Source: an uncultured delta proteobacterium (lineage in GTDB: Bacteria; Myxococcota_A; UBA9160; JAFDET01). Taken from it: 64,000 bases of DNA. The notes beneath the pieces were generated by a model. The model ran no database searches, was not told where the DNA came from, and saw only the letters and a list, made by a program, of their open reading frames with translations. Location: contig CAMYLJ010000001.1 in the NCBI GenBank assembly GCA_947259215.1, forward strand, positions 84,505-148,504. The letters run 5' to 3'. The translations under genes were made by a program, and so were the position numbers. This document shows positions 8,706 through 49,247 of this stretch, piece after piece (within the stretch, counting starts at the first letter, position 1; the number at the start of each line of letters is the position of its first letter).

Positions 8706-8711
8706 ATCGCC

Positions 8712-9668
8712 GTGGCGCCCACCCACGCGCGACCCATCGTGGCGCTGGCCGGCGGCGTGGGGGCGGCGCGCTTCCTGCGCGGGCTGGTGGAGGCCGTTCC
8801 GGCCGAGCAGGTGGCCGCGGTCGTGAACACCGGGGACGACGCGGAGTTCTACGGCGTCCACGTCTCGCCGGACCTCGACATCGTCACCTACACGCTGGCG
8901 GACCGCGTGAACCGGGAGCGGGGCTACGGCATCGAGGGCGACTCCTTCGGCGTGGTGGACGCCCTCGGCGCGCTGGGGCACGAGACCTGGTTCCGCCTGG
9001 GAGATCGGGACTTCGCGACCTGCCTGCACCGCACGGGGCGCCTGCGGGCGGGCGCAGGCCTGGCCGCCGTGACGGACGAGATCCGGCGGGCCTTCGGCGT
9101 CGCCGTGCGCATCGTGCCCATGTCCGAGGATCCCTGTCCCACGTACGTGGAGTTCGAGGGCGGGCGCCGCGTGCACTTCGAAGAGTACCTGGCGCGCGAC
9201 GGGGCGCCGGGCGACGTGCGCGGCGTCGATCTGGCCGCCGCCCGTGCCGCCCGGCCGGCACCCGGGGTGACGGAGCTCCTGCGCGCCGCGGAGACGATCC
9301 TCGTCTGCCCGAGCAACCCGGTGGTCTCGATCGGGCCCATCCTCGCGCTGCCCGGCCTGCGCGAGGCCATCGCCGCATCCGGCGCGCCCGTGGTCGGGGT
9401 CTCGCCCATCGTCGGCGGCGCCCCGGTGAAGGGGCCCGCGGATCGCCTGCTGCGCGGGGTCGGCATCGAGGTCTCCGCCCGCGGCGTCGCGGGCCTCTAC
9501 CGCGACTGGCTGCACGGCTTCGTGATCGACGCCCGGGACAGCGAGCAGGCGGCCGAGGTGGGAGCCCTGGGCCTGCGCGCCGTCGTGACCGACACCATCA
9601 TGCGCGACCGCGGCGCCGCGGCGGCCCTGGCCCGCACGGCCCTGGAGCTGGCTGCGCAGCTGCGATGA
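8712..9668 (+). CDS. cofD: 2-phospho-L-lactate transferase (F420 biosynthesis)
   Basis: N-terminus IVALAGGVGAARFLRGL...VVNTGDD matches the CofD/FbiA signature. 318 aa, GTG start. Confidence 0.85.
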   Translation: MAPTHARPIVALAGGVGAARFLRGLVEAVPAEQVAAVVNTGDDAEFYGVHVSPDLDIVTYTLADRVNRERGYGIEGDSFGVVDALGALGHETWFRLGDRDFATCLHRTGRLRAGAGLAAVTDEIRRAFGVAVRIVPMSEDPCPTYVEFEGGRRVHFEEYLARDGAPGDVRGVDLAAARAARPAPGVTELLRAAETILVCPSNPVVSIGPILALPGLREAIAASGAPVVGVSPIVGGAPVKGPADRLLRGVGIEVSARGVAGLYRDWLHGFVIDARDSEQAAEVGALGLRAVVTDTIMRDRGAAAALARTALELAAQLR

Positions 9669-10309
9669 TCGCCGCCCTCGTGCCCGTCAAGCGCCTGGGC
9701 GCGGGGAAGTCGCGCCTGCCCCTGGACCGGGATGCCAGCGCCGCGCTGGCACAAGCCATGTTGGAGGACGTGCTGGCCGCGCTGCGGGCGTTGCCCGAAC
9801 TCGACCCGGTGGCCGTCGTGACCGGCGACCCCGGCGTGGCGGAAGCGGCCGCAGCCGCGGGCGCCCGCGTGCTGCGCCACCCGGAAGAGGGACTGAACGC
9901 GTCCATCGACGCCGCCTCCGCTGCCCTCTCCGCCGAGGGCGCCACGGGCGTGCTGGTGGTGCTGGGAGACGTGGCCGGGGTGGTGCCGGAGGACCTGCGC
10001 CGCCTGCTGGCCGAGCTCGACGCCGTCGGCGGCAGCGGCGCCGTGCTGGCGCCGTCGGCCGACGGCGGCACGGCGGCCCTGCTGCGCGCGCCCGCCGACG
10101 CCATCGCATCGGGCTTCGGTCCGGAGAGCGCGGCGCGGCATCGGGAGCTGGCGCGCGAGGCGGGCGTGCCCCTGCGCGAGCTCGCCCTCCCCTCGCTGGC
10201 CGTGGACATCGACGCCGAGGAGGACTTGTCTGCATTCCTGGCCCGGCCCGACGGGGGCGCGCGCACGCGGGCGGCCCTGGCGCGGATCGGCTGGCGGGCG
10301 CCGCAGTGA
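9665..10309 (+). CDS. cofC: 2-phospho-L-lactate (or PEP) guanylyltransferase
   Basis: ATG at 9665 overlaps the cofD stop (ATGA). The sequence MIAALVPVKRLGAGKSRL...VVLGDVAGV matches the CofC/FbiD pattern. Trimmed from the 719-aa track ORF. Confidence 0.8.
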   Translation: MIAALVPVKRLGAGKSRLPLDRDASAALAQAMLEDVLAALRALPELDPVAVVTGDPGVAEAAAAAGARVLRHPEEGLNASIDAASAALSAEGATGVLVVLGDVAGVVPEDLRRLLAELDAVGGSGAVLAPSADGGTAALLRAPADAIASGFGPESAARHRELAREAGVPLRELALPSLAVDIDAEEDLSAFLARPDGGARTRAALARIGWRAPQ

Positions 10310-11061
10310 CGGCGCCCCCCGCGCCCGTGCGCCTGGTGCCGATCCCCGGCGTACCGGCCGTCGCGCCGGGCGACGACCTGGCGGCGCTCGTCGCCGACGC
10401 CGCGGCGCAGGCCGGTATCACGCTGCGCGACGGGGTGCTGGTCGTGTGCCAGAAGGTCGTGTCCAAGGCGGAGGGCCGGCTCGCGCGGCTGGCCGAGGTG
10501 GAGCCCTCCCCGGAGGCGCGGAAGATCGCTCGCGAGGAGGACAGGGATCCGCGCCAGGTGGAGCTCGTGTTGCGGGAGAGCCGGCGCATCGTGCGCCGCG
10601 GCCACGGGGTGCTCATCGCCGAGACCCACCACGGCTTCGTCTGCGCCAACGCCGGCGTCGATCTCTCGAACGCGCCGGAGGACGGAGTCGCGGTGCTGCT
10701 GCCGCTGGATCCGGACGCTTCGGCGCGCCGGCTGCGCGACGCCCTGGCGCCGCCGGAGGCGCGCCTCGGCATCATCGTCTCCGACACCTTCGGGCGCCCC
10801 TGGCGCGAGGGCCTGGTGGACGTGGCCATCGGCTGCGCGGGGATGTCGCCGCTGCGCGACGACCGGGGCAGCCACGACCTCGCCGGCCGCGAGCTCCAGG
10901 TCACCGCGCTCGCGACCGCAGATCAGCTGGCGGCGGCGGCCGGGCTGCTCATGCCCAAGGCGGCCGGGATCGCCGCGGTCTGGATCGAGGGCGTGGCGAT
11001 CGAGGGCGACGCCCCGCTGCGCTCGCTCCTGCGCGACCCGGCCGGCGATCTCTTCCGCTGA
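10306..11061 (+). CDS. cofE: Coenzyme F420-0:L-glutamate ligase
   Basis: GTG at 10306 overlaps the cofC stop (GTGA). The motifs VLVVCQKVVSKAEGR...HGFVCANAGVDLSN...SDTFGRPWREG are CofE / FbiB N-domain motifs. Confidence 0.85.
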   Translation: MTAPPAPVRLVPIPGVPAVAPGDDLAALVADAAAQAGITLRDGVLVVCQKVVSKAEGRLARLAEVEPSPEARKIAREEDRDPRQVELVLRESRRIVRRGHGVLIAETHHGFVCANAGVDLSNAPEDGVAVLLPLDPDASARRLRDALAPPEARLGIIVSDTFGRPWREGLVDVAIGCAGMSPLRDDRGSHDLAGRELQVTALATADQLAAAAGLLMPKAAGIAAVWIEGVAIEGDAPLRSLLRDPAGDLFR

Positions 11062-12993: not shown

Positions 12994-13434
12994 GTGTCCA
13001 AGGGCCTCCAGATCGCCGTCGGCGGGCTCACCGTCGCCGCCCTCCTCGGGTGGTACGGCTGGAGCGCCCTCGAGGACGCGGGCACCTACCGCTACTTCCA
13101 GACCCTGGATGAGTTCCGTGCGGTGGGCGCCGAGGCGGGTCCCTCGCGGGTGCACGGCTACGTGGCCGAGGGCTCGATCCAGCGCGACGTAGCCAGCAAG
13201 AGCGTCCGCTTCGTCGTGCAGTCGACGCCACCCCACGCCGGGACCGCGAGCGGCGCGCCGCTCGTCGTGCGCTACGCGAGCCTCGAGACGCCGGACCTCT
13301 TCAAGGACGGCGCCGAGGTGGTGGTGGAGGGCGAGCTCGCCGCCTCGGGCGGGGAGCCCGTATTCCACGCCACCAAGGTGCTGGCCAAGTGTCCGTCGAA
13401 GTTCGAGGCAGAGGGCGCCCAGGCGTCGTTCTGA
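12994..13434 (+). CDS. ccmE: Cytochrome c maturation heme chaperone CcmE, Cys-type variant
   Basis: GTG at 12994 is preceded by gggag. TM anchor, then an OB fold (TPDLFKDGAEVVVEGEL). The heme-binding position reads VLAKCPSKF rather than the canonical LAKHDENY. Confidence 0.85.
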   Translation: MSKGLQIAVGGLTVAALLGWYGWSALEDAGTYRYFQTLDEFRAVGAEAGPSRVHGYVAEGSIQRDVASKSVRFVVQSTPPHAGTASGAPLVVRYASLETPDLFKDGAEVVVEGELAASGGEPVFHATKVLAKCPSKFEAEGAQASF

Positions 13435-13457: not shown

Positions 13458-15437
13458 ATGGCCGAGATCGGATCCATCGCCCAGCAGCTGGCGCTCTTCG
13501 TCGCGCTCGCGGGCGTCGTCTTCGGCGTGTTCGCAGGCGTGACGCGCAGCGCGGCCTGGGCCCGGGTCTCCGAGCGGTCGGTCTTCGCCGCCTGCGCGGC
13601 CGCGACCCTGGCCATCGGCTGCCTCTTTCTCTCCTTCGGCCGCGGCGACTTCGGGATCATGTACGTGGCCGAGACCTCGGCGCGCGCCATGCCCATGCGC
13701 TACCGGCTGGCGGCGCTCTGGGGCGGACAGGACGGCTCGCTGCTGCTCTGGCTGTGGATGCTCAGCATCTACTCCAGCGTGGCCGTCTTCAGCCTGCGCG
13801 ACCGCGCGCGCAGCCTGCTGCCGTGGGCGTGCGCCATGCTGCTCGCCAACCAGGTCTTTTTCCTGGTGCTCGTGAACTTCTTCACGAACCCCTTCGAGCT
13901 CTTCCCTCCCGGTGAGGCGCCGTCGGACGGCCGCGGCCTGAACCCGCTGCTCCAGCACCCGCTGATGACGATCCACCCGCTGCTGCTGTACGCGGGCTTC
14001 GTCGGCTTCGCCGTCCCCTTCGCCTTCGGGTTCGCCGCGCTGATGTCGGGGGAACTCGGCACGGCCTGGTTCCGGGCCACCCGGCGCTGGGCGATCTTCG
14101 CCTGGGCGATGCTCGGCGTGGGCATCCTGCTGGGCGGCCGCTGGGCCTACGAGGTGCTCGGCTGGGGCGGCTACTGGGCCTGGGATCCGGTGGAGAACGC
14201 CTCGTTCATGCCCTGGCTCGTGGCCACCGCCTACCTGCACTCGGTCATGATCCAGGAGAAGCGCGACATGCTGCGCATCTGGAACCTGGTCCTGATCGGG
14301 CTGACCTACGTCCTGTGCCTCTTCGGGACCTTCCTGACCCGCAGCGGGATCGTGCAGTCGGTCCACGCCTTCGCGCAGACGGACTGGTTCGGGCGCGTCT
14401 TCCTGTCCTACGTGGTGGTCTCTGCCGGACTCTTCTTCGTGCCGCTCTTCCTGCGGCGGCACGAGCTGCGCAGTCCGAACCGGCTGGAGTCCGTGGTCTC
14501 CCGCGAAGCGAGCTTCCTGATCAACAACTGGATCTTCCTGGGGATCCTGCTGGTGGTGCTGTGGGGCACCCTCTTCCCCGTGCTGTCCGAGGCGGTGAGC
14601 GGAACCAAGATCGCCGTGCACCACACCTTCTTCAACCGCATGAACGCGCCGCTGGCCATGCTGCTGCTGCTGCTGACCGGCGTGGGCCCGCTGATCGCCT
14701 GGCGCCGCGCCTCGCCGGCCAGCTTGAAGCGCCAGTTCGTGGTGCCGGTCTCGGTGGGCGCTGCAACCGCTGCGGTGCTGCTGGCGACCCTCGGCACGCG
14801 CGTCGGCTTCTTCCCGCTCGTCACCTGGAGCCTGTCCGCCTTCGTGGTGGCGACCGTCGCGCAGGAGTACGGGCGCGCCATCCGCGCGCGGGTGCGCGGC
14901 GGCGAGACGCCGTGGGGCGCCCTGGCCACCCTGCTGCGCAAGAACCAGCGACGCTACGGCGGCTACGTGGTGCACCTGGGGATCGTCTTCGTGCTGGTCG
15001 GCGCAGCCGGCGCGGCCTTCAACGAAGAGCGGCTGGAGAACGTGCGTCCCGGAGACTCCGTGACGATGAACGGCTACACGCTGCGCTACCTGACGGCGCA
15101 CCCGCTGCCGGCGCAGCACTACGGCGGTGCCCAGGCCCGGATCGCTCTCTTCCGCGGCGACGAGCCCCTGGCCACCCTGGTGCCCGAGAAGCGGGTCTAC
15201 TGGCTGGAGGAGCAGCCGACGTCGATCCCGGCCATCCGCTCCAGCCTGCGCGAGGACCTCTACGTGCTGCTCACCGCCGTGGAGGCGGACGGATCCGCCA
15301 CCCTCAAGATCCACCGCAATCCGCTGGTGGCCTGGATCTGGCTGGGCGGGGCGACCTTCGTGCTCGGCACGATCCTCGTGATGTGGCCCCACGCGCCGCG
15401 CCCCGAGCGCGGACGCCCCGAGCCGCCTTCGGCATGA
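13458..15437 (+). CDS. ccmF: Cytochrome c-type biogenesis protein CcmF (heme lyase)
   Basis: ATG at 13458. Polytopic membrane protein with the WWD region (WGGYWAWDPVENASFMPWL). Confidence 0.9.
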   Translation: MAEIGSIAQQLALFVALAGVVFGVFAGVTRSAAWARVSERSVFAACAAATLAIGCLFLSFGRGDFGIMYVAETSARAMPMRYRLAALWGGQDGSLLLWLWMLSIYSSVAVFSLRDRARSLLPWACAMLLANQVFFLVLVNFFTNPFELFPPGEAPSDGRGLNPLLQHPLMTIHPLLLYAGFVGFAVPFAFGFAALMSGELGTAWFRATRRWAIFAWAMLGVGILLGGRWAYEVLGWGGYWAWDPVENASFMPWLVATAYLHSVMIQEKRDMLRIWNLVLIGLTYVLCLFGTFLTRSGIVQSVHAFAQTDWFGRVFLSYVVVSAGLFFVPLFLRRHELRSPNRLESVVSREASFLINNWIFLGILLVVLWGTLFPVLSEAVSGTKIAVHHTFFNRMNAPLAMLLLLLTGVGPLIAWRRASPASLKRQFVVPVSVGAATAAVLLATLGTRVGFFPLVTWSLSAFVVATVAQEYGRAIRARVRGGETPWGALATLLRKNQRRYGGYVVHLGIVFVLVGAAGAAFNEERLENVRPGDSVTMNGYTLRYLTAHPLPAQHYGGAQARIALFRGDEPLATLVPEKRVYWLEEQPTSIPAIRSSLREDLYVLLTAVEADGSATLKIHRNPLVAWIWLGGATFVLGTILVMWPHAPRPERGRPEPPSA

Positions 15438-17239
15438 TGCGACGTGCGGCGGTGCTCGCGGCCGGCCTGGCGCTGGCTGGTGGTGCCGTCGCCCAGGAGA
15501 CGCCGGCCGGGGACGACGTGCCCGTCGGCGACGGCGCCATCGTGGGTCGCGTCGTCCACGGGGGAACCGGCGCGGGCGTCGCGGGCGCCGACGTGGTGAT
15601 CTACGCCATCGCGCCCGACGGTCGCCCGGGCGTGCGCCGCGGGCAGAGCGGCGCGGAGGGCGCGTTCCGCTTCGAGGGCGTCAGCACCGATCCGGGCACG
15701 GCCTATCTGTTCGGAGCGCGCTACCAGGAAGTTCCCTTCGTGGGCGAACGCCTGGCCTTCGAGCCCGGCCAGACCGAGCGCAGCACCACCCTGACCGTGC
15801 ACGAGCGCACCCGCGACCCGTCCGCGGTCGAGGTCGCCGAGGTCACGCTGCGCCTGGCGCGGATCGGGCAGGAGCTCGCCGTGGCCGAGATCTACCGCCT
15901 GCGAAACCCGAGCGACCGCGTCTTCTTCCTGCGCGACGACGAGCGCGGCGCGGGCACGCGTCCGGCGCTGCACGCGCTGCTGCCCGAAGGCGTGCTGCGC
16001 TTCGCCCTGCCCTACGCCGCGGTGCCCGAGGGCCTCCTGCGAGACGGCCGCGACGTGCGCTTCTACGGTCCCGTCTACCCCGGGGAGCAGGAGCTCGGCT
16101 TCACCTACACCTTGCCCGCACGCGAGGGCGACCAGGCCCTCGCGAAACGCTGGCCGACCGGCGCCACGCGGGCCGTCCTGTTGATCCCCGACGGCCTGGA
16201 GGCCTCCGCGCCCGACTTCCGCGCCGGCGAGGATCGCCAGGTGGACGGTCAGCGGCACCGCACCCTCGAGCTCGCCGGGCTGGCGCCGGGCAGCCGGACG
16301 CGGCTCGCGCTCCAGCTGCCGGCGACCGTGCGCGACCCGGACGCCGTCGCGCTCGCGCACGTGCGGAGCTTCCTCGAGCTGGACGACGCCGCACTCCAGG
16401 TGAGCGAGGAGTACCACCTCGAGGTCGCCGGCGGACAGCCGGTGGTCGGCTCCGAGACGGAGCCGCTCTTGCGGATCCCCATCCCTCCGGAAGCGCGCGA
16501 CGTGCGCTACGGGGCCGCCTCCTTCCCCAGCGGCATCGCCAGCGCCGGCGGCGACCTGGTGGTGGCGGGGCCGGTCCCGCCCGGCGCCTCGCGGGTGGAC
16601 GTGCGCTACCGGCTTCCCGCCGACGCGACCCCCGTGCACTTCGAGCGCCGCTACGGGCGACCGGTGCCGACGGTCTCGCTCTACGTCGCCGACACGGGAC
16701 TCGAGCTGCGCTCCGAGCGACTGCACCGGCGGCGGCCGGTGAAGGCGCAGGAGCGGCTCTACATGCATTTCGAGGCCTTCCACGTGGCCGCGGACGAACG
16801 GGTGGACGCCACGCTCGCGCCGCTGGCCCGGACCCGGTCCCTGGGGCGCGGCGCGCGCGTGGCGTTCGTGCTGGCGGCGGCCGCCGCCCTGGCGCTCTTC
16901 CTGGCGGCCCCGCTCCGCCCGGGCGTGCGCGTCACGGAGCGCTCCCCGGCCGATGACACGGCGCGCGACGAACGCAATGCGCTCTACGCCGCGCTCCGCG
17001 ATCTCGAGCACGACTTCGAGACCGGGAAGCTCTCCCAGGAGGACTTCGCGCGCATGCGCGACGAGCTGCGCGGCCGGGCGGCCTCGCTCCTGCGCGCCGA
17101 GCGCTCTGCCGAGGCGTCGCCGCCGGCGGAGCCGGCCGCGACGCCGTGCGGCGCCTGCGGCGCCGAGCCTCCGCCGAGCGCGCGCTTCTGCTCCCACTGC
17201 GGGGCGCCCCTTGCCGACGGACCGGGAGCCACCGCGTGA
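15434..17239 (+). CDS. Uncharacterised ccm-embedded protein: signal peptide, CarboxypepD_reg-like fold, large periplasmic region, TM segment, CcmI-N-like helix and a C-terminal zinc ribbon
   Basis: ATG at 15434 overlaps the ccmF stop (ATGA), and its stop overlaps the ccmA GTG (GTGA). Sequence elements: MMRRAAVLAAGLALAGGAVAQ signal; GRVVHGGTGAGVAGADVVIY...GAFRFEGV; TM VAFVLAAAAALALFLAAPL; NALYAALRDLEHDFETGKLSQEDFARMRDEL; CGACGAEPPPSARFCSHCGAPL. Confidence 0.7.
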   Translation: MMRRAAVLAAGLALAGGAVAQETPAGDDVPVGDGAIVGRVVHGGTGAGVAGADVVIYAIAPDGRPGVRRGQSGAEGAFRFEGVSTDPGTAYLFGARYQEVPFVGERLAFEPGQTERSTTLTVHERTRDPSAVEVAEVTLRLARIGQELAVAEIYRLRNPSDRVFFLRDDERGAGTRPALHALLPEGVLRFALPYAAVPEGLLRDGRDVRFYGPVYPGEQELGFTYTLPAREGDQALAKRWPTGATRAVLLIPDGLEASAPDFRAGEDRQVDGQRHRTLELAGLAPGSRTRLALQLPATVRDPDAVALAHVRSFLELDDAALQVSEEYHLEVAGGQPVVGSETEPLLRIPIPPEARDVRYGAASFPSGIASAGGDLVVAGPVPPGASRVDVRYRLPADATPVHFERRYGRPVPTVSLYVADTGLELRSERLHRRRPVKAQERLYMHFEAFHVAADERVDATLAPLARTRSLGRGARVAFVLAAAAALALFLAAPLRPGVRVTERSPADDTARDERNALYAALRDLEHDFETGKLSQEDFARMRDELRGRAASLLRAERSAEASPPAEPAATPCGACGAEPPPSARFCSHCGAPLADGPGATA

Positions 17240-17955
17240 GCGAGCCGGTGGTGGAGGCCACCGGTCTCAGCAAGCGGTTCGGACCGGTGGTCGCCCTGCG
17301 CGGCATCGACCTGCAGGTTCCGCGCGGGAGCCTGCTCGCCGTGCTCGGTCCCAACGGTGCCGGCAAGTCCACCCTGCTGCGGCTGCTGGCGGGCCTCGCG
17401 CGCCCGAGCGCGGGAACCCTGCGGGTCGGCGACGCCGCCGGCGACCGGCGTGCGGCCCGGCGCGAGATCGGCTTCATCGGCCACCAGACCTTCCTCTACC
17501 CGGCGCTGACGGCGCGCGAGAACCTGCGCTTCGCCGCCCGGCTCTACGGCGTCGCTGGAGCCGAGGGCCGGATCGCCCGGCTGCTGGCGGAGCAGGACCT
17601 GGAGCCGCTGGCGGATCGCGCGGCGGGAACCCTGTCTCGCGGGCAGGCCCAGCGGCTGGCCATCGCCCGCGGCCTGGTCCACGACCCCGCCGTCGTGCTC
17701 CTCGACGAGCCCATGAGCGGGCTCGACCGGGCGGCGGCGGGTCGCCTGGCTGCGCGCCTCGGACGCCTGCGCGACGACGGGCGCACCCTCGTGCTCGTGA
17801 CCCACGACCTGGCGCGGGCCGCCGAGCTGGCCGACGCCGCGCTGGTGCTGGTGGCCGGCCGCGTCGCCCAGCGTGCCGAAGGCGCCGCGCTCGCGCCGGA
17901 GGAGCTGGAGCGCGCCTACCTCGCGGCCCTGGAGAGCGGCGGAGGTGCGGCGTGA
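17236..17955 (+). CDS. ccmA: Heme exporter ATP-binding protein CcmA
   Basis: GTG at 17236. Walker A GPNGAGKST, signature LSRGQAQRLAIARG and Walker B VLLDEP. Confidence 0.85.
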   Translation: MSEPVVEATGLSKRFGPVVALRGIDLQVPRGSLLAVLGPNGAGKSTLLRLLAGLARPSAGTLRVGDAAGDRRAARREIGFIGHQTFLYPALTARENLRFAARLYGVAGAEGRIARLLAEQDLEPLADRAAGTLSRGQAQRLAIARGLVHDPAVVLLDEPMSGLDRAAAGRLAARLGRLRDDGRTLVLVTHDLARAAELADAALVLVAGRVAQRAEGAALAPEELERAYLAALESGGGAA

Positions 17956-18617
17956 ACGCGCTCTGGGCGCTGCTCTGGAAGGACCTGGTCTCCGAGTGGC
18001 GCAGCCGCGACCGCGCGATCGCCATGGGGGTGTTCGCGCTGCTGGTGGTGCTGGTGTTCGAGTTCGCGCTGCCGCGCGAAGGTCCCGAGCAGGCGCGCGC
18101 GCTGGCGCCCGGCGTGCTCTGGGTCACCTGGCTCTTCGCGGCGCTGCTGGGGCTGAACCGCGCCTTCGCGCTCGAGCTGGAGAACGAGGCGCTCGCGGGG
18201 CTCGCGCTCACGCCCGCCGACCGCGGCTGGATCTTCCTCGGCAAGGCCGCGGCGAACTTCGTGCTGCTGGGGGCCGTGCAGGCCGTGACCGGCGTCGTCT
18301 TCGCCGCCGTCGCGGGCCTCGATCTCGGCCCGGTGGCGCTGCCCCTGGCCGGGGTCGCGGCGCTCGGCGCGCTGGGGATCTGCTCGGTGGGAACGCTCTT
18401 CGGCGCCATGGCGGTGCGCACCAGCTACCGCGAGGTGATGCTTCCGCTGCTGCTGCTGCCGCTGTTGCTGCCGGTACTGGTGGGCGCGGTGCAGGCGAGC
18501 GCGGGATTGATCGACGCGGGCAGCGTCCCGCCTGCGTCGCTGCGCCTGCTGGTCGCCGCCGACGGCGTCTATCTGATAGTCTCGTTTCTCGTCTTCGAGT
18601 ACGTCCTCGACGAGTGA
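17952..18617 (+). CDS. ccmB: Heme exporter permease CcmB
   Basis: GTG at 17952 overlaps the ccmA stop. Six-TM protein reading VNALWALLWKDLVSEWRSRD...; its position is between ccmA and ccmC. Confidence 0.8.
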   Translation: MNALWALLWKDLVSEWRSRDRAIAMGVFALLVVLVFEFALPREGPEQARALAPGVLWVTWLFAALLGLNRAFALELENEALAGLALTPADRGWIFLGKAAANFVLLGAVQAVTGVVFAAVAGLDLGPVALPLAGVAALGALGICSVGTLFGAMAVRTSYREVMLPLLLLPLLLPVLVGAVQASAGLIDAGSVPPASLRLLVAADGVYLIVSFLVFEYVLDE

Positions 18618-18634: not shown

Positions 18635-19312
18635 ATGCCCGACACCCCTGCCCTGCGCCGCGGCGCCGGCGTGACCCTGGCGCTGGCCGCCGGTGTCTAC
18701 GCGCTGCTGGTGGTGCGGGCGCCGGTCGACAGCGTGCAGGGCGTGATCCAGAAGATCCTGTACGTCCATCCCGCCTGCGCGTTCGCCGCCTACGCGGGCT
18801 TCCTGCTCACGGCCGTGGCCAGCGCCCTCTACCTCTGGCGCGGCGACGAGGCCTGGGACCGGCGCGCCGCAGCCGCGGCCGAGGTGGGCGTGGTGTTCTG
18901 CACGCTCAACATCCTGACCGGTCCGATCTGGGCCAAGGGCACCTGGGGACATTGGTGGTCCTGGGACCCGCGCCTGATCGTGACCCTGGTGTTGTGGTTC
19001 ATCTACCTCGCCTACATGCTGCTGCGCAGCTTCACCGAGGGCAGCGAGCGGGCCGCCCGCTTCGCCGCGGTCTACGCCATCGTGGGATTCCTGGCCGTCC
19101 CGCTGAACTACGCGGCCATCGAGCTCTTCGAAGGTCGCGCGATCCATCCCGACAACCTGGAGCGCGACAGCCTCGGCGCGGGCATGGGGGCCCCCTTCGG
19201 CTTCGGCGCGCTCACCATCCTGCTGGCGTTCGCCTACCTGTTCCTGCTGCGCCTGGAGGTGGGGGGACTGCGGGCGCAGCTCGCCCGACGAACGGCCGAC
19301 TCGGAGGCCTGA
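18635..19312 (+). CDS. ccmC: Heme exporter protein CcmC
   Basis: ATG at 18635. Tryptophan-rich motif WAKGTWGHWWSWDPRL. Confidence 0.9.
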   Translation: MPDTPALRRGAGVTLALAAGVYALLVVRAPVDSVQGVIQKILYVHPACAFAAYAGFLLTAVASALYLWRGDEAWDRRAAAAAEVGVVFCTLNILTGPIWAKGTWGHWWSWDPRLIVTLVLWFIYLAYMLLRSFTEGSERAARFAAVYAIVGFLAVPLNYAAIELFEGRAIHPDNLERDSLGAGMGAPFGFGALTILLAFAYLFLLRLEVGGLRAQLARRTADSEA

Positions 19313-19315
19313 AGC

Positions 19316-19444
19316 ATGGCCTACGTAGTGGCCGCCTATGGCCTCGTGGCAGCGGCGCTTCTCGGGTACGGCCTGGGGCTGGCGCGGGAGCGCCGCCGGC
19401 TCCGGCAGAGCCTCGACGACCGCCCTCGGGCCGAACGATCTTGA
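19316..19444 (+). CDS. ccmD: Small membrane protein, CcmD-like
   Basis: 42-codon ORF not in the track: MAYVVAAYGLVAAALLGYGLGLARERRRLRQSLDDRPRAERS. It has a single TM segment plus a basic tail and starts 4 nt after the ccmC stop. Confidence 0.6.
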   Translation: MAYVVAAYGLVAAALLGYGLGLARERRRLRQSLDDRPRAERS

Positions 19445-19470
19445 CAAACAGGGGCTTCCGGAAGTACAAA
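19441..19470 (+). promoter_or_regulatory. Candidate sigma70-type promoter with a palindromic operator in the spacer
   Basis: TTGACA (19441-46), an 18-nt spacer, then TACAAA (19465-70). The spacer contains the perfect 10-bp palindrome CTTCCGGAAG (19455-64). Confidence 0.35.
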
Positions 19471-19785
19471 CCGGTAACCCCTCGGTTTCGGAAGCCGTTC
19501 CGGCCTCCGGTTTCAGGAGAGAATTTGCGCCCCACCCCCCCCGGGCTCGAACTGCGCGCTGTGGCTGGGCTTTCCATGCGACTGCCGCTGTCCTTCGACC
19601 CTCCGGCGGACGGGTGTGCAATCGCTTGCGGTGGGACCCGCCGGGGAGGGAAGCGCACTACACAAAAGGGGACGGTGGGGAGCGTCCCCCTCGGGCCGCG
19701 CAGCGTTCTTCGCAGTGCAGGGCGGGCGCAGATCCGGGTACAACATCGCGAATCGCCTGGCGCGGAGGCCCCCCTGGCCGACGCT

Positions 19786-19800
19786 TGGCACGGGGCTTGA
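19786..19800 (+). promoter_or_regulatory. Candidate sigma54 (-24/-12) promoter
   Basis: TGGCACGGGGCTTGA matches the consensus TGGCACG-N4-TTGC with one mismatch (A for the -12 C). It lies about 80-90 nt upstream of the zinc-ribbon ORF start candidates. Confidence 0.4.
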
Positions 19801-19869
19801 ACCTCGTACTTCCGCGGATGGGAAGCGCGGAAGCAACCCCGTGTCGACCCGCGTAGGCACGAACCTGGA

Positions 19870-20382
19870 GTGGCAACGAGGATGGCCAGCATGAAACGCG
19901 GAGTCGGGTACTGCGAGAACACGGACTGCGAGGATTACGCCAAGGGCGTCTTCCTGTTGAACCATGGCGACACGTTCTACTGCCCGCGCTGTCGTCAGCT
20001 CGGCAAGGTGGAGAAGGAGCGCGGCTTCTACACGGGGAACTCGGACATCTTCAAGGAGGTCCGGGTCGAGTACAACTTCGATCCGATCAACGGAATCTAC
20101 CGGGAGATCGCGATCGTCCGCGACGAGAGCTTGTGGGGCCGCAACAACGTCTACACGCTGCAGTCGCCCCTGATCAAGACCGAGAAGCGCGCCCTCAAGG
20201 TGGCCGAGGCGATCCTGGCCAACTTGAACCGCTACCGCGGGTTGCTCAACGGCGACGACATCCCCCGCACCACCGAGATCATCCTCTCCTTCGACGAGCC
20301 CTTCGAGGAGTTCCAGAAGAAGCTCCAGCAGCTCAGCAAGGAGTGGGAGGCCAGCGGGTTGCGCGAGCAGGCCAGCCGCTAG
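19870..20382 (+). CDS. Orphan zinc-ribbon protein of unknown function
   Basis: The track ORF starts at GTG 19870. More likely starts are ATG 19882 or ATG 19891 (GAGG lies 9 nt upstream of 19891). It has C-x4-C...C-x2-C (CENTDCEDY...YCPRCRQ). The residue mix is K/N/E/I/F/Y-rich, unlike its neighbours, but GC3 is still high. A clean intrinsic terminator follows. Confidence 0.7.
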   Translation: MATRMASMKRGVGYCENTDCEDYAKGVFLLNHGDTFYCPRCRQLGKVEKERGFYTGNSDIFKEVRVEYNFDPINGIYREIAIVRDESLWGRNNVYTLQSPLIKTEKRALKVAEAILANLNRYRGLLNGDDIPRTTEIILSFDEPFEEFQKKLQQLSKEWEASGLREQASR

Positions 20383-48098: not shown

Positions 48099-48182
48099 CG
48101 CGGCGCCCCCGGCCGGCCGCCCCTATACTGCTGACCCGCCGAGCCGTTCGGGGGGCTCTCCGGCAACCCAAGAGGAAGACAC

Positions 48183-49247
48183 ATGCGCCGTTCGCTTCTC
48201 GGTCTCGCCCTGGCGGGACTCTGGTCACTCGCCTGCACGGGGACCCAATCTTCAGACGCGCCGGGTGCGCTCGACACCTCCGGCGACGCCGGCCGTGTCG
48301 TCGCGACGATCGACGACGATGCGATTACGATCGCCGAGCTCGACAGCTGGATCAAGGAGGACTGGTTCCGCGACCAGCTGGAGGACGAGAGCGCGGCCAA
48401 GGTGCACGAGTTCCGTTCGGAGCGCCTCAACCGCATGATCGACGAGCGCCTGCTCGAGGTCGAGGCACGCACGCGCGGCGTCGACCCCGATACGCTGCTC
48501 CAGGAGGCGGCCGACAGCGCCCCGGGCCCCAGCGAGGAGCAGGTCTCCGCCTTCTACACCGAGAACCAGGCACGCCTGCAGGGCAGCAGCCTGGAGCAGA
48601 TCGCTCCGCGCATCCGGGAGCATCTCCAGCAGCAGAACCAGCAGCAGGCGGTCGTGGCCTTCGTCGCGAGCCTGCGCGAGCGGTCGGCCGTGAAGGTGGA
48701 TTTCGAGCCGCCGCGGGTCGAAGTGGCCGCGATCGGGCCCGCCCTCGGTCCCGAGGCCGCGCCCGTGACGGTGGTGGAGTTCAGCGACTTCCAGTGCCCC
48801 TTCTGCTCGCGGGCTGCGCCCGTGCTGAAGCAGCTGCGGGAGCGCTATCCCGAGCAGGTGCGCGTGGTCTACCGCCACTTCCCGCTGGACTCGATCCATC
48901 CCCAGGCACGTCCCGCCGCCGAGGCGTCCATGTGCGCCGGCGAGCAGGATCGCTTCTGGGAGTTCCACGACCTGCTCTTCGCCAACCCCAAGGCGCTCTC
49001 CGACGAGCAGCTGGCGGGCTACGCGGAGCAGCTGGAGCTCGACGCCGAGGCGTTCCAGGCCTGTGTCGCGGAGGGCCGCTTCCGGGACGCCGTCCAGCTG
49101 GACCTCGACGACGGCCGCCGCGCCGGCGTCACGGGAACGCCGTCCTTCTTCGTGAACGGCCGCATGCTCGGCGGCGCGCTCCCGCTCGAGGAGTTCGTGA
49201 AGGTGATCGAGAGCGAGCTCCAGCGCGAAGGCGGCGCGGCGTCCTAG
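48183..49247 (+). CDS. DsbA-family thiol:disulfide oxidoreductase lipoprotein with an N-terminal SurA-N-like helical region
   Basis: Lipobox LWSLAC. Thioredoxin fold with FSDFQCPFCSR...GTPSFFVNG. Confidence 0.8.
   Translation: MRRSLLGLALAGLWSLACTGTQSSDAPGALDTSGDAGRVVATIDDDAITIAELDSWIKEDWFRDQLEDESAAKVHEFRSERLNRMIDERLLEVEARTRGVDPDTLLQEAADSAPGPSEEQVSAFYTENQARLQGSSLEQIAPRIREHLQQQNQQQAVVAFVASLRERSAVKVDFEPPRVEVAAIGPALGPEAAPVTVVEFSDFQCPFCSRAAPVLKQLRERYPEQVRVVYRHFPLDSIHPQARPAAEASMCAGEQDRFWEFHDLLFANPKALSDEQLAGYAEQLELDAEAFQACVAEGRFRDAVQLDLDDGRRAGVTGTPSFFVNGRMLGGALPLEEFVKVIESELQREGGAAS

Follow-up and report, generated by a model that had tools for sequence, protein, structure and literature searches.

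A cysteine-type CcmE with phenylalanine at the position of the ligand tyrosine in a Myxococcota cytochrome c maturation cluster

The window analysed here, a 64-kb stretch of DNA with a G+C content of 73%, carries seven genes in the order ccmE-F-X-A-B-C-D, where X denotes a 601-aa accessory protein (Table 1). This order had been proposed from the letters alone in what we call the sequence-only reading, and Pfam and NCBIfam searches agree with it. Several of the junctions overlap by 4 bases, and the gene set of the variant cytochrome c maturation system 'System I*' is present in full, with ccmA, B, C, (D), E and F.

Table 1 Features of the ccm cluster in the window, and gene content of the Tyr-type clusters used for comparison.
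Feature	Position	Strand	Description
ccmE	12994..13434	+	146 aa; Cys-type heme chaperone; N-terminal membrane helix, OB-fold domain and flexible tail
His54 codon	13153..13155	+	RVHGYV in strand β1; the Myxococcota clade always has His here, other Cys-type CcmEs N/H/S/A
Loop insertion PPHAGTASGAP	13228..13260	+	Between two barrel strands; contains invariant His81 (13234-13236)
CPSKF motif	13390..13404	+	TGT CCG TCG AAG TTC, residues 133-137; putative covalent heme-attachment position and Tyr134 position
ccmF	13458..15437	+	Pfam Cytochrom_C_asm and CcmF_C; TIGR00353 E 1e-130; heme lyase subunit
X	15434..17239	+	601-aa accessory protein; start overlaps the ccmF stop
CcmI-N-like part of X	16865..17119	+	Residues 478-562; TM and DLEHDFETGK helix; TIGR03142
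Zinc ribbon of X	17141..17212	+	Residues 570-593; CxxC...CxxC; the only Cys in X; predicted cytoplasmic
ccmA	17236..17955	+	ABC ATPase; TIGR01189 133 bits, cutoff 131.6
ccmB	17952..18617	+	Pfam CcmB E 1.4e-28
ccmC	18635..19312	+	Pfam Cytochrom_C_asm E 3e-32; TIGR01191 E 6e-33
ccmD	19316..19444	+	42 aa; Pfam CcmD E 5e-7, 30.1 bits, cutoff 25.6
Conserved 170-aa ORF	19870..20382	+	Syntenic with the ccm genes in at least 47 of 81 loci; lies 3' of them in most relatives
L082			Tyr-type CcmE; ccmE, ccmF, 35-aa ORF, 175-aa protein, 365-aa protein, ccmA-D, Redoxin, CcdA
L083			Tyr-type CcmE; ccmE, ccmF, CcmH, 147-aa TM and zinc-ribbon protein, ccmA-D, Redoxin
L084 (Deferribacter desulfuricans)			Tyr-type CcmE; CcdA adjoins ccmE-F-A-B-C-D

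The ccmE gene starts at a GTG codon with a Shine-Dalgarno-like GGGAGA sequence just ahead of it. Its product matches the Pfam family PF03100 with an E value of 2.3e-19 and 70 bits (curated cutoff 24.6). The NCBIfam equivalogs for proteobacterial CcmE are matched with scores under their cutoffs only, which is what a divergent subfamily should show. The AF2 model, built from 86 sequences (pLDDT 84.6), comprises a helix (residues 3-28), a β-barrel (residues 33-131) and a low-confidence tail (pLDDT 50-60). The best PDB matches returned by Foldseek for this model are the CcmE structures 8ce8_E, 1lm0, 1sr3, 1j6q and 2kct, and the protein thus displays the anchor, OB-fold barrel and flexible tail of the family.

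The presence of a CPSKF motif in a CcmE, reported by the sequence-only reading, is confirmed by the sequence, the PF03100 match and the HMMER alignment. A phmmer comparison with the PDB sequences, among them the solved CcmE chains 1j6q, 1sr3, 8ce8_E and 2kct, places Cys133 over His130 and Phe137 over Tyr134, the same columns to which they had been assigned by eye, and Cys133 aligns with the Cys of D. vulgaris CcmE (2kct) in the same comparison. HMMER pairs '...KVLAKCPSKF' of the window with '...EVLAKHDENY' of Shewanella CcmE; the longer aligned segments read '...ATKVLAKCPSKF' and '...ATEVLAKHDENY', respectively, and E. coli CcmE aligns likewise. Neither Tyr nor His is found at the ligand position in these alignments, where Phe137 takes the place of Tyr134. 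On inspection, the tail beyond Cys133 (PSKFEAEGAQASF) contains no Tyr, His, Met or second Cys, so a register shift cannot rescue a ligand.

The gene is a real CcmE of the cysteine type that characterizes System I*, and the alignment puts Cys133 at the right position for putative covalent heme binding. The locus as a whole belongs to the Cys-type variant of System I, as had been proposed, with Cys133 at the His130 position of Shewanella and E. coli CcmE and with ccmABCDEF present; the +4 residue is Phe137 and not the Tyr of the CXXXY motif of that variant. The canonical System I combination of HXXXY with CcmH and CcmG is not found, the motif residue being Cys rather than His and the window lacking CcmH and CcmG. 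The window protein has the same fold, membrane anchor, reactive-residue position and CcmABCD and CcmF partners as the CcmEs of E. coli and Shewanella (HDENY; 1sr3, 1j6q and 8ce8_E), which, unlike the window protein, use His130 (N-C bond to the vinyl) and Tyr134 as axial ligand in systems where CcmH and CcmG are required. The C-P-S-K core is shared with the System I* CcmEs of D. desulfuricans and D. vulgaris (CPSKY, 2kct) and with the archaeal CcmE of M. acetivorans (C120), whereas Phe rather than Tyr at +4, the PPHAG loop insertion and the invariant His54 set the window protein apart from the Desulfovibrio and archaeal CcmEs.

The heme lyase subunit CcmF can be aligned over its whole length with that of T. 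thermophilus (6zmq; E 8e-102); its WWD motif (WGGYWAWDPVENASF) is intact and identical to the corresponding 6zmq segment, and the conserved His residues are at the expected positions. The motifs of CcmC are likewise intact. No ccmH, ccmG/Redoxin or ccdA is detected in the cluster or anywhere in the 64-kb window, either by Pfam searches of the ORFs or by tblastn with real Redoxin, CcdA and CcmH proteins taken from Tyr-type clusters. This tblastn search supersedes a scan of the loci and the window for LRCxxC/WCxxC motifs, which returned out-of-frame noise only. The D. desulfuricans operon, as reported, resembles the window cluster in having ccmABCD and ccmF and no ccmH or ccmG in the cluster. 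The System II genes resB and ccsA are likewise absent from the window according to Pfam and NCBIfam; the only ResB and CcsB signals in the window are sub-threshold and lie inside CcmF and CcmC. A CXXCH motif is absent from every ORF of the window, and Rfam and tRNA scans of it found nothing. Forty further ORFs of the window, scanned against Pfam, are housekeeping genes (xseA, ctpA, ftsE, cofD/cofE, engB, hisG/hisI, plsB-like, nhaA, ffh, rlmN, trmB, mraZ-rsmH-ftsI and others).

Three neighbouring regions deserve a brief description. The conserved 170-aa ORF downstream of ccmD has no significant match in Pfam or NCBIfam, and its membership of the ccm system is uncertain; its G+C content at the first and second codon positions is unusually low (0.56/0.40) and a CxxC...CxxC pair lies near its N terminus. 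The 425-bp spacer ahead of it (19445-19869) opens with a TTGACA-containing stretch. Farther downstream, a gene at 48135-49247 (+) encodes a DsbA-like thioredoxin-fold lipoprotein with a CPFC active site and a SurA-N-like domain, which is not a CcmG; it is the only thioredoxin-fold gene of the window and the sole candidate there for a periplasmic thiol-disulfide oxidoreductase. A few kilobases upstream of the ccm cluster, at 8706-11061 (+), Pfam identifies cofD and cofE of coenzyme F420 biosynthesis, and the ORF between them is possibly cofC; to our knowledge, F420 genes are not commonly discussed in Myxococcota.

The product of the gene between ccmF and ccmA, X, starts with a signal peptide, followed by periplasmic tandem β-sandwiches (~30-465), a single TM segment (470-498) and, beyond it, two long cytoplasmic helices with a zinc ribbon at the C terminus. 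Within the clade X is conserved at ~40% identity, and in 44 of 51 loci its start codon and the ccmF stop share an ATGA overlap. The confident AF2 model (pLDDT 90) contains the tandem β-sandwiches, the TM helix and the two long helices; its best PDB matches in Foldseek are ribophorin I/Ost1 of oligosaccharyltransferase (E 7e-15), with a TM-score of only ~0.2 (0.21), which makes the match an architectural resemblance and not evidence of homology. An R-L-H-R-R-R-P motif at residues 429-435 of the periplasmic part is invariant. In its source records the family goes under 'hypothetical' or 'zinc ribbon domain-containing protein'.

The segment comprising the TM helix and the conserved cytoplasmic helix (ALRDLEHDFETGK...) resembles the N-terminal domain of CcmI. 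The match of the window protein to TIGR03142 (E 1.5e-4, 22.1 bits) is under the cutoff of 29.3; 28 of 43 X orthologues match this model at E <= 0.01 (best 6e-8), most of them with scores under its cutoff. Pfam zinc-ribbon families are matched by 40 of the 43 orthologues and TPR families by none of the 43, and a weak GvpG match, seen in only 2 of the 43, is a coiled-coil artefact. X thus resembles CcmI (CycH) in its TM segment and charged cytoplasmic helix (TIGR03142) and in adjoining ccmF, but lacks the TPR domain of CcmI, carries its periplasmic part, all-β in the AF2 model, on the N-terminal side of the TM segment as a β-sandwich, and ends in a zinc ribbon. The counterpart of CcmI in E. coli is the C-terminal half of CcmH. 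Since X resembles the CcmI N-terminal domain it is not an unrelated gene, and the earlier statement that the cluster contains no ccmH and no ccmG, which stands for the cluster and the 64-kb window, applies only to the thiol-redox CcmH proper.

Relatives of X in Tyr-type clusters clarify its composition. A hidden Markov model of the X family matches the 365-aa protein (E 5e-32) and the 175-aa protein (E 2e-28) of L082 and the 147-aa protein of L083 (E 2e-24). The 175-aa protein consists of a TM segment, a CcmI-like part and a double zinc ribbon, and the 365-aa protein is periplasmic with a C-terminal TM segment; the small L082 and L083 proteins are homologous to the C-terminal part of X, and the 365-aa protein matches the N-terminal part. 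From these matches X is a fusion of two accessory proteins that are encoded by separate genes in L082, its halves being a periplasmic β-sandwich protein and a CcmI-N-like membrane/zinc-ribbon protein, and it thereby links two previously unconnected small genes of Cys-type ccm clusters. In Desulfovibrio-type System I*, by comparison, the gene between ccmF and ccmA encodes a small CcmI-like protein and not a 601-aa fusion. X, the accessory subunit of the cluster, probably has a CcmI-like role in CcmF docking and apocytochrome handling rather than a role in thiol-redox chemistry. The X-related proteins of L082 (11609-13230) and L083 (11957-12400) are also encoded between ccmF and ccmA, the small ones with TM, CcmI-N-like and zinc-ribbon parts measuring 147-175 aa, and proteins of this build seem to form an accessory module, as yet unnamed, that recurs in Cys-type ccm clusters. 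In one related MAG (L021, 12446-14959) the X frame runs into ccmA to give an 837-aa product, the result of either a genuine fusion of X with CcmA or a frameshift in the assembly.

To place the CPSKF motif in its phylogenetic context, we compared the +4 residue among CcmE homologues. A similarity search of ~5.8 billion proteins gave 1770 matches, and CPSKF is present in all 116 of the best 120 that cover the region. None of the 119 close homologues (59-94% identity) departs from C133, P134, S135, K136 and F137; they were retrieved by overall similarity and not by motif and all come from uncultured Myxococcota MAGs. In the 86-sequence alignment of the clade, the motif and 26 other positions are invariant. 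Representatives of 50%-identity clusters were also searched exhaustively with HMMER; the best 150 are all Cys-type, and 88 near-full-length ones were scored. Of these, 69 have Y at +4, 18 (~20%) have F and 1 has M, within the motifs CPSKY (50), CPSKF (15), CASKY (9), CPSRY (6), CPTKY (3), CPSRF (3), CPSKM (1) and CPGKY (1). Around a Tyr-type query close to the D. vulgaris sequence, the count is Y 114 and F 4 (F ~3%). As far as these sequences tell, the +4 position takes Y, F and, once, M, and nothing else.

In a neighbour-joining tree, Phe-bearing CcmEs fall into at least three separate positions, namely the Myxococcota clade, a Chloroflexota/Dehalococcoidia clade and one or more singletons. 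The second Phe clade, whose two named members are Dehalococcoidia and Chloroflexota MAGs, also includes one Met and one Tyr member, and the Myxococcota clade includes a CPSKY representative, P0132, on an otherwise typical background. The Tyr/Phe change thus arose several times, and the close homologues show Phe to be the fixed state of the Myxococcota lineage of the window. In species-level genomes, at loci chosen by motif, the Phe codon is TTC in 70 cases and TTT in 6.

Taxonomy and synteny, as distinct from conservation of the Phe, were read from a contig scan that included KCPSKF as a search pattern and found at least 434 stretches encoding a relative in species-representative genomes. In nearly all of the best 80 stretches the source MAG bears the label Myxococcota, Myxococcales or 'Deltaproteobacteria', and in a few the label Spirochaetales or Opitutales. 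In relatives, an aminotransferase gene on the minus strand is followed by ccmE, ccmF, X, ccmA, ccmB, ccmC and the 170-aa ORF, and the same arrangement is found in a 5.8-Mb circular Myxococcota MAG. When the ±10 kb flanks of 81 related Phe-type loci were searched by tblastn, CcmH and CcdA gave no match and Redoxin gave one, in contrast to L082 and L083. The Myxococcota-type cluster was also seen in MAGs labelled 'uncultured Spirochaetales/Spirochaetaceae' or 'Opitutales' (L011, L016, L024, L031, L034 and others); these labels are probably bin mislabels.

The System I* variant is attributed to Allen 2006 and Goddard 2010, and Harvat et al. 2009 is reportedly the primary paper on the dispensable Tyr of E. 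coli CcmE. Goddard et al. reportedly expressed the D. desulfuricans genes in Δccm E. coli together with a reporter cytochrome c. The Cys-type CcmE variant is established (reviewed in PMC3601427 and PMC3884852). Most variant CcmEs carry CPSKY (25 of 36 genomes), and F replaces Y in four, which were listed without analysis (Stevens et al. 2011, FEBS J 278:4170, PMC3601427). Because the literature counts these Y-to-F proteins within the variant, Tyr is typical of System I* but not strictly defining, and about one third of the bacteria with a Cys-type CcmE do have CcmH (PMC3601427). CcmI boosts maturation in System I*, yet is not required (PMC3601427). The motif Cys of M. acetivorans CcmE is needed for heme attachment (PMC9084895). 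A CPSKF motif string in this sense finds no mention in the literature searched. Phe at the column of E. coli Tyr134, although correctly recognized, is accordingly not new as such, the replacement of Tyr by Phe in Cys-type CcmE having been recorded in 2011 without follow-up. The window protein belongs to the same variant as the Y-to-F CcmEs of Stevens et al. 2011 (PMC3601427), with Phe here fixed in a large Myxococcota clade and found in a second, Chloroflexota clade. New are this extent across two clades, the restriction of the position to Y, F and M, and the nature of X.

The way in which CcmE binds and lets go of heme, and the function of its conserved Tyr, are unsettled matters of System I. 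Tyr134 ligates the heme iron in released E. coli holo-CcmE. We consider it likely that the window encodes a System I* chaperone that needs an aromatic side chain at the +4 position and can dispense with the Tyr hydroxyl as ligand, with X as a CcmI-like accessory. The system would then be a functional variant System I ('System I*') for cytochrome c maturation in an uncultured Myxococcota bacterium, in which CcmABCD would load heme onto Cys133 via a vinyl-thioether bond and holo-CcmE would hand it to CcmF for attachment to CXXCH apocytochromes, both steps by homology with the CcmEs of D. desulfuricans and M. acetivorans. Phe137 stands in place of the E. coli ligand Tyr, and the position most likely calls for a side chain, aromatic or hydrophobic, that lies packed on the heme, the phenolate Fe-O bond being dispensable. 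With heme in CcmC or CcmF, the His pairs of these partners would ligate the iron; during transit the iron would be five-coordinate or would take a solvent ligand.

That the aromatic ring matters and the hydroxyl ligand is dispensable is the most likely reading of two lines of evidence: the Tyr of E. coli His-type CcmE can be removed with function kept, as summarised in a review (PMC3601427), and Cys-type CcmEs whose backgrounds are otherwise alike switch repeatedly between Y and F. This interchange also weakens the earlier proposal that a missing Tyr implies different heme handling or a ligand supplied elsewhere. The invariance of Phe in 119 of 119 homologues and its occurrence in a second independent clade likewise argue that a phenolate ligand is not needed in Cys-type CcmE. 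The ccmE gene is under selection. Against the preferred explanation, Phe is very stable within each Phe clade even though Tyr is one transversion off (TTC/TAC), and lineage-specific selection for Phe fits this better than free interchange does. The two invariant His residues of the Myxococcota clade, His54 and His81, also count against it.

These residues are the basis of an alternative, which we regard as unlikely, in which His81 of the PPHAG loop or His54 of strand β1 replaces Tyr as the ligand in the Myxococcota clade and yields a His-ligated holo-CcmE. Both His are invariant in all 119 close homologues, the inserted loop is lacking in most other Cys-type CcmEs, and the OB-fold strand order of the AF2 model would put it at the same barrel end as Cys133. 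Neither His, however, follows the Phe. The PPHAG loop is absent from most Tyr-type CcmEs and from the Phe-type CcmEs of Chloroflexota, and the latter clade also lacks His54, thus having neither His. The CPSKY protein P0132 has both His and the loop, the Tyr-type relative P0158 has a His-containing loop, and His54 is present in 13 of 69 Tyr-type representatives. The patterns in P0132, P0158 and the Chloroflexota clade mark His54 and His81 as clade markers only and leave them improbable as compensating ligands. When every alignment column was compared between Phe-type and Tyr-type CcmEs, none showed a His, Tyr, Met or Cys whose presence goes with Phe across the clades.

A broader version, in which Phe137 is positively maintained because the iron ligand has moved to His81 or His54 or to His431 of X, and X replaces CcmH, CcmI and CcmG, appears improbable to us; if the ligand had moved and X were an apocytochrome-handling subunit, the locus would represent a mechanistically distinct third flavour of System I. 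The part assigned to X can also be considered separately. That X, through His431 of its periplasmic R-L-H-R-R-R-P motif, ligates or shields the CcmE-bound heme, or that it replaces CcmH/CcmG in a mechanistically distinct pathway, we hold to be very unlikely, even though its translational coupling to ccmF is accompanied by synteny across the clade, its invariant residues include R429, H431 and R434, and its cluster is free of the CcmH, CcmG and CcdA genes found beside the Tyr-type clusters L082 and L083. Homologues of both halves are separate genes in the Tyr-type cluster L082, and the zinc-ribbon half adjoins a true CcmH in L083, so X is not tied to Phe. X has no periplasmic Cys and hence cannot perform the thiol chemistry of CcmH/CcmG, and the redox genes may simply lie elsewhere in the genome.

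The remaining alternative holds that another system matures the cytochromes and that ccmE is non-functional or in decay, or that Phe137 results from an error of sequencing or assembly. It is extremely improbable given an intact ORF in an intact, coupled seven-gene cluster, the invariant positions of the clade alignment, relatives at the at least 434 stretches of the CPSKF-pattern scan and synonymous variation of the Phe codon, and is effectively refuted by the conservation in 119 of 119 homologues.

A lineage-wide natural Tyr-to-Phe swap offers a ready-made experiment and a sequence set for Y/F swaps. The practical gain is modest, and the core observation, being already published, alone changes little.

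A further feature of the CcmE clade lies at the extreme C terminus. The last three residues (13423-13431, +) follow a clade pattern A-[S/A/P]-[F/L] directly before the stop codon, with Ala in 91 of 119 sequences and Phe or Leu in 92 of 119, and may form a C-terminal docking or protease-recognition motif.
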